Shown: positions 1 to 29,404, counted from the first letter of the stretch. The stretch: DNA of 37,607 nucleotides from Chthoniobacteraceae bacterium (GCA_031409335.1 JANNWY010000143.1:1-37607); one strand, 5' to 3'. The notes: generated by a model from the sequence alone, not told the origin. Numbers and translations are program-made.

Positions 1-2
1 AG

Positions 3-548
3 GCCGGCACCCTCACCAAAGCGCAACCCGACGCCCTGCAGGAATTGGAACGCCTCACCAATGGCGGACGCCGCAGCGCCCGGCTCACCTTCCCCGGCGA
101 CGACGTCAAACTCCACAGCGAATTCCAGGTCGGCATCGACACCCCCAAGACCCTCGCCTCCGAACTCGAGCGCGCCCGCATCATCCTCGCCTCCTGCCAG
201 CGCCACACCGCCGCCTTGAAAAAGCACGGCTGGACCGCCAAAGACACCACTGCGCTCGATACCGCCATCACCGCCCTCGAAAACACCAGCCTCGACCAGA
301 GCAACGTCCTCGACGACCGCGCCGGCCTCACCGAAGACCGCATCATCGCCGGCAACGCTCTCTACGCCAATTGCCTCGCCATCCAAAACGCCGCCCGGCT
401 CGAATACCCCTCCAACCGCCCCGGCAACGAAGCCGCCCGGCACCGCTTCCTCCTCGACGAATTCCCACCGCGCGACCGCTCCAACCCCTCCGGCGACAAT
501 CCTCCTCCGCCGCCCCCTCCCGTTCCCCCAATCGTGCCGAAGCCGTAA
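3..548 (+). CDS. Hypothetical protein, 5'-truncated by the window edge, with Pro-rich C-terminal tail
   Basis: Frame is open from base 3 (AGTLTKAQPDALQELERL...) to TAA at 546-548. Codon usage is strongly biased to C-ending codons. Ends in DNPPPPPPPVPPIVPKP. No family recognised. Confidence 0.75.
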   Translation, partial: AGTLTKAQPDALQELERLTNGGRRSARLTFPGDDVKLHSEFQVGIDTPKTLASELERARIILASCQRHTAALKKHGWTAKDTTALDTAITALENTSLDQSNVLDDRAGLTEDRIIAGNALYANCLAIQNAARLEYPSNRPGNEAARHRFLLDEFPPRDRSNPSGDNPPPPPPPVPPIVPKP

Positions 549-596
549 AAGCAGAAGACCATTGTCCGCATCCTTGGTTCCCGATAATCTCATTCC

Positions 597-848
597 ATGA
601 CGACTGTCTCCATACCGGTTGACGAAAATTGGCTCGCGGCTTCCGGAGTCACCGCGGAGGAAGCCGCGCGTGATTTCCGCTTTCTCCTCGCATCGCGGCT
701 TTTCGAATTGCGCAGGCTCACGTTGGTTCAAGCGTCTGCCATGGCAGGCATGGATGTCTGGCAATTCACCGAGCATCTTGGCACCGCCGGAGTCAGTATC
801 CTCAATCTGCATCCCGACGAGCTCGCCGCGGAGCTCGGTCATGGCTGA
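597..848 (+). CDS. UPF0175-family protein (putative antitoxin)
   Basis: 83 aa with the pattern LASRLFELRRLTLVQASAMAGMDVWQFTEHL, typical of UPF0175. Overlaps the start of the downstream PIN gene. Confidence 0.8.
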   Translation: MTTVSIPVDENWLAASGVTAEEAARDFRFLLASRLFELRRLTLVQASAMAGMDVWQFTEHLGTAGVSILNLHPDELAAELGHG

Positions 849-1341
849 GCCACTCATCATCTGCGACGCCAGTCCGCTGATCCTCCTTGCGAAAATCGAT
901 GCGCTTGATCTCCTTTTGCAGGCTGGAGATCGCCTCATGATCCCGCGCGCGGTATGGAATGAAGTGATCGTCCCATTGACGACGCGCCCGGAAGTGAAGA
1001 AAATTCGCGAGCGCTTTGCGTCGGTGGTCACCGAAGCCGACCCCATTTTGGCCGCCGCCTACAGGCTTCAAGTGGATTCTGGAGAAGCAGAGGCGCTGGC
1101 CCTCGCCGCCCGACATCCGCAAAGCATCCTGCTCATGGACGACGCCAAAGGCCGCCGACTGGCCCTCGTCTCCGGATTTAGAGTCATGGGAACACTGGGT
1201 CTATTCGTCCGTGCAAAGCGCAGCGGGCAGATTCTCGAGGTCAAGCCTTACTTGGATCGACTGCAACAAAACGGCCTGTTCGTCTCTCCCGCTCTGCTCG
1301 CACAAGTGTTGAAAGCAAGTGCGGAAGAGCAGCCGACATGA
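841..1341 (+). CDS. DUF3368-type PIN-domain protein (putative toxin)
   Basis: ATG at 841. Motifs ICDASPLILLAKI, DSGEAEALALA, LLMDDAKGR and GTLG match the PIN/DUF3368 family. Confidence 0.85.
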   Translation: MAEPLIICDASPLILLAKIDALDLLLQAGDRLMIPRAVWNEVIVPLTTRPEVKKIRERFASVVTEADPILAAAYRLQVDSGEAEALALAARHPQSILLMDDAKGRRLALVSGFRVMGTLGLFVRAKRSGQILEVKPYLDRLQQNGLFVSPALLAQVLKASAEEQPT

Positions 1342-1361
1342 GCTCCTCACCTAAAGGATAA

Positions 1362-1376
1362 GCGGAATGCGGAATG
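1362..1376 (+). repeat. Short purine-rich heptamer tandem GCGGAAT x2, overlapping the ATG of the four-helix-bundle gene
   Basis: gcggaat gcggaat g; it is the reverse complement of the ATTCCGC/TTTCCGC units downstream of the gene. Confidence 0.6.
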
Positions 1377-1721
1377 AAAAACGATCTTGAAGGCCGAACA
1401 TTGGAATTCTCCTGCCATCTCATTGATTTTGTCACGAGCCTGCCAAAAGGAGTAGTCGGAGACGTGGTTGGCAGACAATTGCTGCGATCAGGAACCTCCA
1501 TCGGAGCCAACTACCGGGAAGCAAATAGAGGGGAATCGAAAGCCGACTTCATTCATAAAATTGGTATCTGCGAGAAAGAGGCATCCGAGACAAACTACTG
1601 GCTAGAGATTTGTGCGAAGCGCCAGTTGGGTTCCCAAACTCCGCGAGAACAACTTCTCAAGGAATCCAGTGAGTTGTTGGCAATCTTCACAACCATCGGC
1701 AGAAACGCCAAACGAAAGTAA
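1374..1721 (+). CDS. Four-helix-bundle protein (23S rRNA IVS / bAvd-like family)
   Basis: 115 aa with the signature RQLLRSGTSIGANYREA..ESKADFIHKIGICEKEASETNYWLE. Confidence 0.92.
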   Translation: MKNDLEGRTLEFSCHLIDFVTSLPKGVVGDVVGRQLLRSGTSIGANYREANRGESKADFIHKIGICEKEASETNYWLEICAKRQLGSQTPREQLLKESSELLAIFTTIGRNAKRK

Positions 1722-1734
1722 GTCCGCACTCAGT

Positions 1735-1897
1735 TTCAGGCTTCCTCTTTCCGTTTTTCGCCTTCCGCCTTCCGCCTTCCGCCTTCCGCTTTTCGATTTC
1801 CGCATTCCGCTTTTCGCCCTTCGCTTTTCGCCTTCCTTCTCCGCTTTCCGCTTTCCGCTTTCCGCTTTTCGCCTTCCTTCGCCGCTTTCCGCTTTCC
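1735..1897 (+). repeat. Degenerate heptamer tandem array (TTCCGCT/TTCCGCC/TTTCGCC)
   Basis: About 20 imperfect 7-bp units read directly from the sequence, running up to the GTG start at 1898. Confidence 0.95.
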
Positions 1898-2167
1898 GTG
1901 CCCGAACTCTCACGCTTTTACGGGATCATCATTCGGATGTTCTCCGAGCCTTCCGGGCGGCATCACGTTCCGCATTTCCACGCCTACTACGGCGAGCACG
2001 TCGCCGTGTTTTCCATTTCACCGGTGGCCCTCATCATCGATTTCATTCCGCAGCGCCCACAGCGTCTCGTCGAGGCTTGGGCCGAGCTTCACGAGGAGGA
2101 GCTTCTTTCCGATTGGCTGCTTCTGGAGCAGGGCCGCAAGCCTTCCCCAATCACGCCTTTGCAGTAG
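1898..2167 (+). CDS. DUF4160-domain protein (putative TA component)
   Basis: MPELSRFYGIIIRMF..HHVPHFHAYYGE..VEAWAELHEEELLSDW matches the family pattern. GTG start. Confidence 0.88.
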   Translation: MPELSRFYGIIIRMFSEPSGRHHVPHFHAYYGEHVAVFSISPVALIIDFIPQRPQRLVEAWAELHEEELLSDWLLLEQGRKPSPITPLQ

Positions 2168-2176
2168 AGTAGCGCC

Positions 2177-2491
2177 ATGAACCATCCCATCTATCGCATC
2201 ACCTTCGCGGAGTGCGTCCCGCCTTACTCACTACGCCTCAGTTTCGACGACGGCCTCAACCGCACCATTGATTTCGAGCCGATTCTTGAGGGCGAGCTTT
2301 ACGGCCCGCTGCGCGACCCCGCAGCTTTTGCCCAGGTCACGCTCGACCCGGAGATTCATACGGTCGTGTGGCCGTGCGGAGCCGACTTCGACCCTGCCAC
2401 GCTCCACGATTGGCCCGAGCACGAGGCCGCATTTCATGCTGCCGCAGAGCGTTGGAGGCACTCCTTGGAAGCTGGAAAGTCCGCGCACTGA
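2177..2491 (+). CDS. DUF2442-domain protein (partner of DUF4160)
   Basis: [37 protein letters not shown] pattern; usual pairing downstream of DUF4160. Confidence 0.88.
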
Positions 2492-2500
2492 TAACGGACG

Positions 2501-2706
2501 ATTTCCGCATTCCTTCTCCGCTTTCCGATTTCCGCTTTTCGCCTTCCGCTTTTCGATTTCCGCATTCCTTCTCCGCTTTCCGATTTTCGCCTTCCTTCTC
2601 CGCTTTCCGCTTTTCGCCTTCCGCTTTCCGCCTTCCGCTTTCCGCTTTCCGCTTCTCCTCCGGCCTCCGATTTCAGCTTTCCGCTTTCCGCTTTCCGCTT
2701 TTCCTC
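2501..2706 (+). repeat. Second degenerate heptamer tandem array (TTTCCGC family)
   Basis: About 200 bp of imperfect 7-bp units ending immediately before the wzt ATG. Confidence 0.95.
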
Positions 2707-4044
2707 ATGTCCTCCGACATCGTCATCCGAGTCGAAAACCTCTCCAAGAAATACACCTTGGGACATCGCCCCAACGGACCCGACAGCGGCCTCCGCCACG
2801 CCCTGCAAAATGCCGCCACCGCCCCCTGGCGCATGTGGAAAAACAGAGCGCCAAAGTCAGAGATTTCCGCTTTCAACTTTCCGCTTTCCGCTTTGCCCCC
2901 AGGCCCTCGTCCCACCCCTTCTACTTCCAACTTTCAGCTTTCACCTTTCAGCTCTGCTCCTGACGACTTCTGGGCTCTAAAAGACGTTTCCTTCGAGGTC
3001 CGCCGCGGCGAAGTTCTCGGCATCATCGGTCGGAACGGGGCGGGCAAAAGCACGCTACTCAAAATCCTTTCCCGTATCACGGAGCCCACCAGCGGAAGGA
3101 TCGGTCTCAAAGGCCGCGTTGCCAGTCTCCTGGAAGTCGGCACCGGATTTCATCCCGAGCTCTCGGGGCGCGAAAACATCTTTCTCAATGGGGCCATTCT
3201 CGGAATGACCAGCGCCGAAGTTAAGCGAAAGTTTGATGAAATTGTCGCTTTCGCCGGAGTCGAGAAATTCCTCGATACACCCGTCAAACACTACTCCAGC
3301 GGAATGTATGTCCGTCTGGCATTTGCCGTAGCTGCCCATTTGGAACCAGAAATCCTTGTCATTGACGAGGTGCTGGCGGTTGGCGACGCCGAATTTCAGA
3401 AGAAATGTTTAGGTAAAATGCAAGATGTCGCTTCAGGAGGAAAAACGGTCCTTTTTGTCAGTCATAACCTTAGCGCGGTGCGTGGCATGTGCGACCACGC
3501 ATTGCTCTTGGACAACGGCTTCCTAGTTTTTCATGGTGATGTCGAGGCGGCAGTGCAGCGATACTCAACGCGATCAACTCAAATCACGGTTAGGGATTCG
3601 CGACGGGATTTCTCCGCAAAAAGCCGCAACATCATCTCCATAACTCCAGAGTTGGATTCGTTTGCCGCACGGCAACAACTACGACTGCAAGTTCGAGTGT
3701 CGAAGGCGAAAGACGCGTGCTTCTGTCATTTTTCCATTCACATATACAACGACAGTCGTGAGAATATCTTAACGGTTTCGACTGAGCACTTGGAGGGTGG
3801 AACTCTGGCGCCCGATATCACTTCATTCATCGTCAGAATCGACAGCCCGTGGTTGCTTCCCGGCACCTACGAGATTGACGCGTATCTTTATAGTGGCGAC
3901 ATTATTGACAAGTGGGAGCACGCCTGCCGGTTTGAAGTGACCGAATCGCTTTCACGATTGGGTTACAGCGCAGTGAGTTCACGGGGATGCAGGGTGGTGC
4001 TGGCTGATTTTCATCTTGATTCGGTGGAACATTCTCATGATTAA
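2707..4044 (+). CDS. wzt: Polysaccharide ABC exporter ATP-binding subunit with C-terminal Wzt_C-like domain
   Basis: [25 protein letters not shown], Walker [37 protein letters not shown]-terminal beta-rich extension containing LLPGTY. Confidence 0.93.
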
Positions 4045-20816: not shown

Positions 20817-22025
20817 ATGAAGGTCGCGTTTTGCATGATCAACTGCAACCGGCGCGACGGCAGTGCGAGGGCGGTGAATGAAGTGGCCGAACGCCTTGCG
20901 GATCGGCATGAGGTGCATCTCTATGCTCGAAAAGCGGAGGACTTGGATTTTCAGAAAGTGCGCTGGCATCGAGTGCCCGGTCCGGGCTGGCCGGAGGTTG
21001 TGGATTTCTGGACCTATCATCATTCCGTAAATCGCTTTCTCAAGCGTACAACGCCTTCTTGCCCCTCAACTCTCAACACTCAACTCTCAACGTCTTGCTA
21101 TGACATCGTGCATTCCGTCGGATGCAATGTGCCGCGAGCCGATGTGATTACGATTCAAAATGTTCAGCCCGCGAAGCGGAGGATAATGGAACGATTCGGA
21201 GGGGATGAGCGGGTGTCGCTGGCCCGGCGATTCACCCGGATGCTCTATCTTCGGGTGACGTCCGCGGCGGAACATCGGCTTTACACTTACCGTGCGGATC
21301 GCCGGTCACCGACGTTCCTGCCCGTTTCGCGGGGGACGGAGGCCGAACTCCGGGCACATTACGAGATCGGATCGGCAGTCGTGAGGGTGGTCCCAAATGC
21401 GGCTGACACCGGGGTGTTTCACCCGATCCCGGAAGCGGAGCGCCGCGAATGGAGGCAGCGCAATGGAATCCGAACTGACGGAACGCTGCTGATCTTTTCG
21501 GGCGGTGAGTGGATGCGCAAGGGTTTGGATGATGCGATTCGCGGAGTGGCGCGACTCGACCGCACGGATGTCCAGTTGTTTGTCGCGGGCGACGATCCCG
21601 ACCGGAGCCGCTATCGTCAATTGGCCGCCGATCTCGGACTTTCGGGTCGAGTCATTTTTGGTGGATTTAGGAGCGACATCGCGACCGCACTCGCTGCTGC
21701 CGATGTGTTTCTTTTTCCGAGTTGGTACGAGGCATTCAGCCTTGCCACCATCGAAGCTGCGGCCTGTGGACTGCCTGTCGTCGCGACACTGATCAATGGC
21801 ACGGAAGATTTCATTCAACCGGGTGTCACCGGAGAATTCATCAAGCACGATCCGGAACAGATCGCATCCGTAATCCGATTGCTGATTTCCAACATCGATG
21901 CCTGTCGTCGAATGGGAGAAAACGCGCGTCGCTTGGTGGAAGAGCATTTTACGTGGGATCGCGTCGCTGCGATGACAGAAAATGCCTATAACTCATACCT
22001 TCAGAAAAGCATTGCCCGCGTATGA
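20817..22025 (+). CDS. Glycosyltransferase family 4
   Basis: VVPNAAD, RKG, FPSWYEAFSLATIEAAACGLPVV. Confidence 0.9.
   Translation: MKVAFCMINCNRRDGSARAVNEVAERLADRHEVHLYARKAEDLDFQKVRWHRVPGPGWPEVVDFWTYHHSVNRFLKRTTPSCPSTLNTQLSTSCYDIVHSVGCNVPRADVITIQNVQPAKRRIMERFGGDERVSLARRFTRMLYLRVTSAAEHRLYTYRADRRSPTFLPVSRGTEAELRAHYEIGSAVVRVVPNAADTGVFHPIPEAERREWRQRNGIRTDGTLLIFSGGEWMRKGLDDAIRGVARLDRTDVQLFVAGDDPDRSRYRQLAADLGLSGRVIFGGFRSDIATALAAADVFLFPSWYEAFSLATIEAAACGLPVVATLINGTEDFIQPGVTGEFIKHDPEQIASVIRLLISNIDACRRMGENARRLVEEHFTWDRVAAMTENAYNSYLQKSIARV
21064..21091 (+). repeat. Intragenic heptamer tandem NCTCAAC x4
   Basis: cctcaac tctcaac actcaac tctcaac read directly. Confidence 0.9.
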
Positions 22026-25591: not shown

Positions 25592-26815
25592 ATGTCCGCT
25601 GACGCAAGGATGGCTGGGAATCTGGACTGGATTGAGCCGGATCGCAAAGCGATGCCACGGGCGTTCTTTACCGGCATGGATTGGTTCCCGGACTGTCGCG
25701 ATGGAGGGTTGGATCGATATTTTCATGGAGCGCTGACTGCGTTTGCTGAAGCGGGAATGAAGGGAGCGGCATTGGTATCAGCGGCTGAGGAGACTTCGCT
25801 GGGTGGGATCACTGTTCAAGGGATGGCTGGGCCAGGCGCCCTCCTGTGGCGTCGCTGGGATGGGGCTCGGGCGATCGCGCGTGAGGGATTCAAACAGGGC
25901 GTGGATGTGGTGAATGCGCACTTCGCGCTGTATGCCTTTCCCTGGCTCCGCGATCTGCCACCGCATATTCCGCTGGTGGTTAATTTCCATGGGCCCTGGG
26001 CGGGAGAGATGCGGGCCGAGGCACGGAGCTTGAGAAGGCGGATCGTGGCGAGTGGTGCGCATTGGATCGAGCGAACCGTTTATCGACGGGCGGATCGCTG
26101 TATCACCCTGTCCACGGCTTTTCGGGATTTGCTCCACACACGATATAGGGTGCCGCTGGAACGGATTCGGGTGGTGCCGGGGGCTTCGGATTTGACCCCT
26201 TATCTTCAGGCTCCGGATCGGAGTGCGGCGCGGGCGCAGCTCGGATGGTCGCAGGAGCGGCGGATTCTGCTTTCGGTGCGGCGGCTGGCGCGGCGGATGG
26301 GGTTGGATTTGCTGATTGAGGCGATGGCGGAAGTGCGGAAGGAATTTCCCGAGGTGTTGCTGCTGATCGGAGGCAAAGGGCCGGAATCGGAAAATTTGAA
26401 AGCGGAAATTGGAAAGCGAAAATTGGAAGGGAATGTGCGTTTGCTCGGGTTTATCCCGGAAGCGGATTTGCCGGCGGCTTATGCGGCGGCGGATTTTTCG
26501 GTGGTGCCGACGGTGGCGCTGGAAGGGTTTGGTTTGATCACGGTGGAGTCGCTCGCCTCGGGGACGCCGGTGCTGGGGACGCGCGTGGGGGCGACGCCGG
26601 AGATTTTGGAGCCGCTTTGTCCGGAGCTACTGTTTGCCGAGGCGACGGCGCAGGCGATGGCGGAGAAGATCAAGGCGGTCCTGCGCGGATCGGTTCGGGT
26701 TCCCGGTCGTGAGGAATGCCGGGCTTATTCGGAACGGTTCGGCTGGCCCAAGGTCGTGCCGCAATTGCTGGCGGTGTTTGAGGAAGCGATCGCCGAAAAG
26801 AAGGCGGTGCGGTGA
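25592..26815 (+). CDS. Glycosyltransferase family 4 (start may be 25652)
   Basis: NFHGPW, VRRLARRMG, ALEGFGLITVESLASGTPV. Confidence 0.9.
   Translation: MSADARMAGNLDWIEPDRKAMPRAFFTGMDWFPDCRDGGLDRYFHGALTAFAEAGMKGAALVSAAEETSLGGITVQGMAGPGALLWRRWDGARAIAREGFKQGVDVVNAHFALYAFPWLRDLPPHIPLVVNFHGPWAGEMRAEARSLRRRIVASGAHWIERTVYRRADRCITLSTAFRDLLHTRYRVPLERIRVVPGASDLTPYLQAPDRSAARAQLGWSQERRILLSVRRLARRMGLDLLIEAMAEVRKEFPEVLLLIGGKGPESENLKAEIGKRKLEGNVRLLGFIPEADLPAAYAAADFSVVPTVALEGFGLITVESLASGTPVLGTRVGATPEILEPLCPELLFAEATAQAMAEKIKAVLRGSVRVPGREECRAYSERFGWPKVVPQLLAVFEEAIAEKKAVR
26387..26428 (-). repeat. Intragenic degenerate heptamer run, reverse complement of the TTTCCGC family
   Basis: tcggaaa atttgaa agcggaa attggaa agcgaaa attggaa on the + strand. 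Confidence 0.65.
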
Positions 26816-28731: not shown

Positions 28732-28856
28732 CTCGTTCCCAAGTTGCACTTGGGAATGCACTTTCCTCGTTCCCAAGTTGCCCTTCGACACGCTCAGGGC
28801 CTTGAGCCTGCCGAGACGGCACTTGGGAGCGCACATGTCTCCGAAGCTCCGCTTCG
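28732..28856 (+). repeat. REP copies 2 and 3 (copy 3 interrupted) plus an accessory hairpin, upstream of RAYT
   Basis: ctcgttcccaagttgcacttgggaatgcac at 28732-28761; ctcgttcccaagttgc[39 nt]acttgggagcgcac at 28766-28834; cgaagctccgcttcg at 28842-28856. Confidence 0.85.
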
Positions 28857-28870
28857 CCCATCCTCACACG

Positions 28871-29404
28871 ATGCGATCCCGCTATCAGGCAAAGGAATCC
28901 GAGCGCGCCTACTTCGTCACCTCCACCATCGTTGCCTGGCTGCCAGTCTTCACCACGGCAGCCCGCTGCGACATCCTGGTCGAATCGCTCGAGTATTGCC
29001 GATCAAAGAAAGCATTGCGCATCGGCGCGTGGGTCATCCTCGACAACCACTTCCATGCCATCCTGGCCGCACCGGACCTGCCACGAGTGATGGCCGATTT
29101 CAAACGACACACCGCGAGCCGGATCATCGCGCAACTCGAATCCGAGCGTTGCGAGTGGCTGCTCAATCAACTGCGATACTTCCGCGCCGCGCATAAGTCC
29201 GAGAGCGAGCATCAGGTCTGGCAGGAGGGTTTTCATCCGCAGGCCATCGTGTCCGATGAGATGATGGAGCAGAAGCGCCAGTATTTGCACCAAAACCCCG
29301 TCAAGCGCGGTCTCGTAGCCAACCCGGAGCACTGGCGTTATTCATCGGCGTACGAGTGGATGGATGGCGGGACCCCGGTGCTGCGCTGTGATCCGTGGCG
29401 TTGA
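28871..29404 (+). mobile_element. REP-associated tyrosine transposase (RAYT, Y1 HUH / IS200-like)
   Basis: YFVT, WVILDNHFH (HUH), DFK, WQEGF, YLHQNPVKRGLV..WRYSSA. Flanked by inverted REP copies. Confidence 0.92.

Follow-up and report, generated by a model that had tools for sequence, protein, structure and literature searches.

A four-helix-bundle gene with inverted heptamer arms and a heptamer-punctuated cassette array in a polysaccharide locus

We analysed a 37,607-nt stretch of DNA from a Chthoniobacteraceae bacterium (GCA_031409335.1, JANNWY010000143.1:1-37607; contig C143 of genome G000; hereafter the window), in which a gene of the four-helix-bundle family TIGR02436/PF05635 and several small gene pairs precede the polysaccharide exporter gene wzt. 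Tandem repeats were called with Tandem Repeats Finder (Table 1). The four-helix-bundle gene is bracketed by inverted heptamer tracts, having GCGGAAT x2 on its 5′ side and 22.7 copies of the complementary heptamer on its 3′ side, as a preliminary description of the window had reported; the second array after the DUF4160/DUF2442 pair and the third tract inside wzt, which proves to be in frame, were also found as described. The bracket is lopsided (2 copies 5′, 22 copies 3′), and 13 nt of the 5′ arm are the exact complement of positions 1798-1810. We infer that the long 3′ tract (tract A) is the expanded 3′ arm of the gene. A UPF0175/DUF3368 pair sits 5′ of the gene, and a promoter and terminator scan gave nothing useful.

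Table 1. Features at the start of the window (positions counted from its first nucleotide)
Feature	Position	Strand	Basis
PQLLE-like small gene, 3′ part (cassette block)	3..548	+	weak NF052641 match below cut-off
UPF0175 gene, antitoxin-like partner	597..848	+	PF03683; PADLOC candidate PDC-S70
DUF3368/PIN-like gene, toxin-like partner	841..1341	+	PF11848 and weak PIN family; PADLOC candidate PDC-S70
5′ arm, GCGGAAT x2 (2.1 copies), overlaps start codon	1362..1376	+	Tandem Repeats Finder
Four-helix-bundle gene, TIGR02436/PF05635, 115 aa	1374..1721	+	profile matches, structure model
Tract A, putative expanded 3′ arm, 22.7 heptamers (TTCCGCT), ends at DUF4160 start codon	1742..1898	+	Tandem Repeats Finder
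DUF4160 gene, DhiT-toxin-like (below NCBIfam cut-off)	1898..2167	+	profile matches
DUF2442 gene, partner of DUF4160	2177..2491	+	Pfam
Tract B, direct copy-like, 29.4 units (TTTCCGC), ends 5 nt before wzt start	2502..2701	+	Tandem Repeats Finder
wzt, polysaccharide ABC exporter ATPase	2707..4044	+	ABC_tran and Wzt_C
In-frame heptamer tract, variable N-terminal loop of wzt	2864..2953	+	Tandem Repeats Finder: 2864-2894, 2931-2953

The locus appears to extend upstream into contig C289, the end of which overlaps the window start by 5 nt, in frame; this overlap makes the join likely without proving it. Besides wzc-like, gmd-like, and wzm genes, contig C289 has further cassettes, and with the join the window gene would no longer stand at the head of the glycan locus, where the preliminary description had placed it. 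The joined order would be: wzm; a second four-helix-bundle gene having its own unit; a pair that we take to be HicB/HicA-like, without a family match in profile scans; UPF0175/DUF3368; the PQLLE-like gene, the start of which probably lies at the contig C289 end; UPF0175/DUF3368; the window four-helix-bundle gene; DUF4160/DUF2442; and wzt. Seven small blocks would then fill the wzm-wzt gap, and pyrimidine-rich heptamer tracts mark their junctions save one; the junction 5′ of the window four-helix-bundle gene has the 5′ arm only.

The window protein matches TIGR02436 with 78.6 bits (cut-off, 24) and PF05635 with 62.8 bits (cut-off, 33.8). Its predicted model is all-helical, with four helices and a predicted local distance difference test (pLDDT) score of 96.7, and its best structural matches are BT_0352 (2RLD) and Xcc0516 (2GSC), with template-modelling (TM) scores of 0.79-0.86. 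The sole sequence match in the PDB is 2RLD, with five chains, and the closest structures are five-chained; Xcc0516 is a pentamer according to the available text of PMC4990558. By analogy with these homologues, the window protein would be a homopentamer. The structural comparison revealed no nuclease or recombinase fold. Synonymous and nonsynonymous rates indicate that the protein is under purifying selection: dN/dS is 0.065 between the contig C289 copy and its counterpart in genome G008, the median for the 46 close pairs (of 90) whose dS is unsaturated is 0.094, and in-frame stops occur in only 10 of 309 homologues.

The fold shared with Avd, the accessory protein of diversity-generating retroelements, was noted in the preliminary description and is recovered here, with 4DWL matched more weakly than BT_0352 and Xcc0516 (TM 0.75, E 0.06); a resemblance of PF05635 to Avd is also stated in the consulted part of PMC10053308. 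The likeness is in the four-helix fold; identity is 14%, and there is no reverse transcriptase at the window locus, the two RVT_1 matches of G000 lying on contigs C32 and C149. Three genomes, each with 6-7 four-helix-bundle genes, likewise yielded no reverse transcriptase. As a separate observation, G008 has 24 reverse-transcriptase matches, most of them identically scored, which suggests a recent group II intron expansion.

The inverted arms recur widely in the family. G000 has eight TIGR02436 matches, seven of which have, by eye, inverted short-period arms with a unit of their own, while the eighth, on contig C289, has arms of mixed orientation. An automated, stop-anchored flank score placed five of the eight in the top 0.5% of 1,296 small open reading frames (ORFs) and missed three, in two of which the ORF reads through the arm; the inverted-flank score of the window gene was reached by 0.46% of the 1,296 control small ORFs. 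We then collected homologues from relatives, GTDB, metagenomes, and IMG/VR, obtaining 318 hits, 309 of them unique and 291 with full flanks, which are kin rather than independent loci. Matched inverted arms were present at 160 of the 291 loci as against 1 of 276 control windows, and the periodicity for which the preliminary description proposed a test in the flanks of such genes is plain, period 7 being dominant (180 of 225 and 182 of 242 arms). The remaining loci comprised 77 with one detectable arm, 16 with direct arms, 19 with unmatched arms, and 19 with none. Arms matched each other in 165 of 195 true pairs, compared with 10.5% of random pairs. Most arms have 4-5 copies (132 of 183 and 135 of 193), a mode that is biased by the detection threshold, short arms being under-detected; the 2-and-22 layout of the window is therefore an outlier. 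Taken together, the flank comparisons indicate that the gene and its inverted heptamer arms are a coherent, general module.

This module is not confined to glycan loci. In a scan of 69 downstream neighbours (of 140 neighbour ORFs), 20 were glycan-type by our reading, 17 were other, and 32 had no match at 1e-15, and glycan specificity was rejected on these mixed neighbours; among the 80 relatives closest to the window protein, 9 have wzm near the gene. A phage origin of the clade of the window protein was also set aside, no IMG/VR relative having been found; another clade of the family gave 53 IMG/VR loci. Separately, at locus L399 (2793-4063), immediately upstream of wzm, a NusG-family gene and a four-helix-bundle gene are interspersed with stacked heptamer arms that have two types of unit, and in G000 a GxxExxY gene (C155:8916-9257) has, by eye, inverted 9-mer-like arms that the other three GxxExxY genes lack, an arrangement like that of the module around another protein family.

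Heptamer unit and protein go together across phyla. We compared 129 loci that have two period-7 arms and lack a stop: units differed by at most one mismatch in every one of the 15 pairs above 80% protein identity, in 45% at 60-70% identity, and in 1-2% below 40%. The highest covariation scores with the unit fall in helix 3 (columns 61, 67, 68, 71, and 75), raw mutual information being inflated by kinship; within-cluster permutation singled out E67 and H61, both for unit position 4, when clustering was looser, and nothing at the tightest. Specifically, position 4 is C/G alongside E67 in 23 of 25 loci and in 12 of 14 held-out loci, and it is A alongside L/Q67 in 21 of 38 and 13 of 20. An amino-acid-to-base code is thus suggestive; it is unproven because the held-out set overlaps the discovery set in clades. 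In a test of independent pairs, p was at least 0.25 (2-7 pairs on supported branches), and plain co-inheritance of unit and protein is possible because such pairs are few.

The closest published counterparts are the 23S rRNA intervening sequences of Coxiella and Leptospira (S23p, PF05635). As set out in the available text of PMC4990558, the Coxiella element is cut out by RNase III, which cleaves its terminal stem, and has tandem heptamers before an ORF described as decaying. The family is the same, complementary ends enclose the ORF, and tandem heptamers lie directly before the start codon. The differences are location (between protein genes, in a protein-coding operon, rather than in rRNA), lopsided arms, the lack of a strong predicted stem, and purifying selection as opposed to a decaying ORF. 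Rfam gave no match up to E 0.1 in four own-genome loci. In the open-access literature, with subscription papers and supplements outside the search, we found no paper tying the TIGR02436/PF05635 family to flanking heptamer arms outside rRNA, and the module is a recurrent and apparently unpublished variant of the ORF-bearing intervening sequence.

A stricter form of this kinship would make the module an mRNA-borne version of the rRNA element, with arms that pair, RNase III cutting the stem and processing the operon transcript, and solo tracts as remnants. The shared family, the Coxiella precedent, and the inverted arms, which are the commonest layout, speak for it. However, the window copy is limited to a stem of 13-15 bp, and positions 1340-1900 fold no better than shuffles (z +1.0), on which result a hairpin model is not favoured for this copy; moreover, the 16 loci with direct arms, the 77 with one detectable arm, and the cassette array are left unaccounted for. 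We consider this explanation improbable.

Heptamer arrays are far more widespread than the genes. G000 has 224 period-7 tracts as against 1-6 for each of periods 4, 5, 8, 10, 11, and 13, and these repeats therefore exceed chance; removal of three homopolymer runs leaves 221. One unit is common to 96 of the 221 tracts, and 69 of these 96 measure 38-39 nt; in 38 cases, two neighbouring tracts form a pair of opposite orientation, with unrelated spacers. The TTTCCGC unit forms only eight tracts in G000, five of them in the window locus. Over 41 genomes, which are kin and not independent, array count and gene count correlate with a Spearman coefficient of 0.47 (0.37 per Mb). The preliminary description had named an array distribution independent of the genes as evidence against a link between the two, and in part this is what we observe: 221 arrays stand against eight genes in G000, and no four-helix-bundle gene was found in G003 (80% complete) or G039 (99% complete), which have 55 and 21 pattern matches.

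Dispersed heptamers have been described before, namely TAACTGA in Beggiatoaceae (PMC4679880) and, for Xanthomonas and Nostoc, GGGAATC and GGGGA(C/T)T (PMC4692102, which calls the heptamer excess of bacterial genomes little studied). They likewise form intergenic arrays, often just upstream of starts or in close inverted pairs; the words 'four helix' and 'intervening' occur in neither paper, and no cassette arrays are reported in the available text of both. In RAYT/REP(IN) systems (RAYT, REP-associated tyrosine transposase; REP, repetitive extragenic palindromic), a small gene has its own inverted repeats and gene-less repeat pairs spread through the genome. The gene flanked by its own inverted repeats and the gene-less pairs genome-wide recall this arrangement. 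Unlike in those systems, the window protein lacks an HUH nuclease fold, its repeats consist of tandem heptamers instead of palindromes, and the spacers of empty pairs are unconserved; there is no Y1_Tnp match at the locus.

The arrays might also be neutral, REP-like repeats and slippage having filled a permissive intergenic spot in which selfish genes collected independently. A REP-like word lies next to 24 of the 74 long arrays of GAACATC type, REP-associated transposases are encoded in the genome, and one G008 spacer word is a genome-wide, 32-copy repeat. The locus-specific matching of arms, the mode of 4-5 copies, the tracking of protein by unit across phyla, and purifying selection point the other way, and we regard neutrality as highly improbable. 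Gene-less pairs are numerous in G000, where inverted GAACATC arrays of about 5.4 units each enclose unrelated spacers near 32 nt (e.g. C12:55363-55471).

The cassette content of the wzm-wzt junction varies among relatives, as the preliminary description had proposed for the locus. Thirty-three related loci had both wzm and wzt, many of them paralogous (five more lacked one gene in the fetched stretch); 23 had no insert, including some with 79-80% wzm identity, seven had other inserts without a tract or query match, and one had a duplicated wzt. At the wzm-wzt junction of G008, which belongs to another genus, the only insert is the 88%-identical counterpart of the contig C289 four-helix-bundle gene. 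That gene (C289:35037-35411) has a dS of 0.94 relative to L039:7441-7806, the adjacent wzm having a dS of 1.8, a weak hint of later exchange between the two genomes. Between wzc and wzm, G008 has ten blocks and eleven heptamer spacers of 177-523 nt; Pfam supports seven of the ten (addiction/ParE, DUF433/DUF5615 twice, UPF0175/DUF3368, MNT/HEPN, DUF6036, and PIN), and one further block has a weak Phd match. G086 has toxin-antitoxin-type blocks at its wzm-wzt junction: MNT/HEPN, MazE-like/PIN, and further blocks stand before wzt, between pyrimidine leaders and a wzt 5′ end that are both duplicated, and a four-helix-bundle gene is absent from the interval. Judged by their family matches (a DhiT-like match below cut-off and a PDC-S70 candidate in the window; ParE, PIN, HEPN, and MNT pairs in G008 and G086), the passenger blocks appear to be mostly toxin-antitoxin-like. 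A general flanking of UPF0175 pairs by tracts was rejected, any tract being present at 7 of 30 UPF0175 loci.

The spacers appear to be related by descent or conversion. A 25-mer and an 18-mer are common to tracts A and B and absent from the rest of the 7.9-Mb genome; the two tracts are 83% identical over 157 columns, and their similarity is of marginal significance (unit-shuffle P 0.02-0.06). A 36-nt piece of the 3′ arm of the contig C289 copy recurs, with 89% identity, beyond the HicAB-like block, and a non-repeat 21-mer occurs three times in G008, each time within a spacer; a second G008 spacer word is the genome-wide repeat mentioned above.

Integron cassette arrays can be rich in toxin-antitoxin cassettes. 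The present array resembles such arrays in its small blocks of the same direction, related spacers, predominance of toxin-antitoxin blocks, and variable content. It differs in that attC boxes and an integrase are absent from the locus and the spacers are degenerate heptamer tracts of 100-500 nt in a glycan operon. In particular, a simple box scan found no RYYYAAC...GTTRRRY pair, which we take to be the attC box motif, 40-200 nt apart in window positions 1-2750 or the end of contig C289; the only above-cut-off IntI of G000 is on contig C166, and G008 has none above cut-off. The window thus adds an integrase-free cassette array, and the same literature search returned no description of heptamer-punctuated cassette arrays.

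The preliminary description had treated protein and tracts as one system admitting other cassettes. The gene and its inverted arms do form a module; the admission of other cassettes is opposed by the excess of arrays over genes, by G086, and by the close relatives of the window protein, of which 0 of 80 have the window cassettes within 4 kb. On that proposal, the protein would recognise the tracts and drive or license cassette entry and removal, much as in an integron, while acting as a novel helper of recombination. Five of the eight TTTCCGC tracts of G000 do lie here, beside the sole gene copy with a TTTCCGC unit; two other G008 spacer units resemble, by eye, arms of G008 paralogues; and gene and array counts correlate. 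Against this, the TTCCGC unit that dominates the G008 spacers is absent from the 11 examined of 12 G008 copies (genome 83% complete), and the structural comparison gave no fold of a nuclease or recombinase. We consider the proposal distinctly unlikely, and the four-helix-bundle protein is probably not the integrase, because 221 arrays genome-wide stand against eight genes and the G086 pile-up lacks the gene.

The tracts could instead be RNA leaders, an unlikely reading. Tract A runs into the DUF4160 start, tract B stops 5 nt before wzt, and every spacer is pyrimidine-rich on the sense strand; in the available text of PMC4679880 (MacGregor 2015), heptamer sets lie mostly just upstream of start codons and a post-transcriptional regulator is proposed. 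This reading leaves unexplained both the locus-unique words that spacers have in common and the duplication of the wzt 5′ end in G086, and one tract is inside wzt; a test of tract orientation relative to start codons across the genome was uninformative (49 and 54 of 221 tracts vs 21.7% at random).

We lean, tentatively, to a mechanism that uses host recombination, which we regard as a serious possibility. Tracts of the same direction with locus-specific words would serve as homology for gain and loss of blocks, and blocks that are addictive would be those that persist, by analogy to integron arrays. The four-helix-bundle gene would be a co-resident, separately travelling module, the protein of which, as a five-subunit ring, would likely bind its own 4-5 heptamers. 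Several observations weigh against this mechanism. Cassette pile-ups occur in three genomes only, and the spacers of G086 are short pyrimidine leaders, not clear heptamer arrays. The comparison is among related loci, not same-species strains, and showed neither circles nor excision products. The junction 3′ of the PQLLE-like gene lacks a tract, and the join to contig C289 depends on a 5-nt overlap. Local gene conversion could yield the shared words without insertion, the A/B similarity is marginal, and most UPF0175 loci have no tract. Finally, the copy-number mode depends on the detection threshold, and unit-protein tracking may be co-inheritance.

If this reading as a whole holds, it would give a testable function to a widespread four-helix-bundle family, a testable source for the heptamer excess of bacteria, and a way in which cassette arrays could arise within cell-surface operons with neither integrase nor attC sites. 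A bolder version, which we rate as unlikely in its entirety, would have programmable pentameric rings reading 4-5 of their own heptamers via the helix 3 face (residues ~61-75), arms seeding the bacterial 7-mer excess, and stacked arms forming an integrase-free, integron-like toxin-antitoxin platform in surface-polysaccharide operons. Should a residue-to-base rule be borne out, such a ring would offer a new scaffold for sequence-specific binding of nucleic acids.

Heptamer tracts also occur elsewhere in the locus and within genes. The wzt loop of relatives has other heptamer units or none; in several genomes (e.g. L038, L401, and L404), in-frame tracts with differing units occupy the N-terminal loop, and in L051 the tract appears to disrupt the reading frame. 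Short period-7 tracts with other units lie within the glycan locus at window positions 21065-21091 and 26390-26428. The glycan locus has, at its distal end, a REP-associated tyrosine transposase gene (window 28778-29404; NF047646, 112.5 bits) with inverted REP-like flanks.
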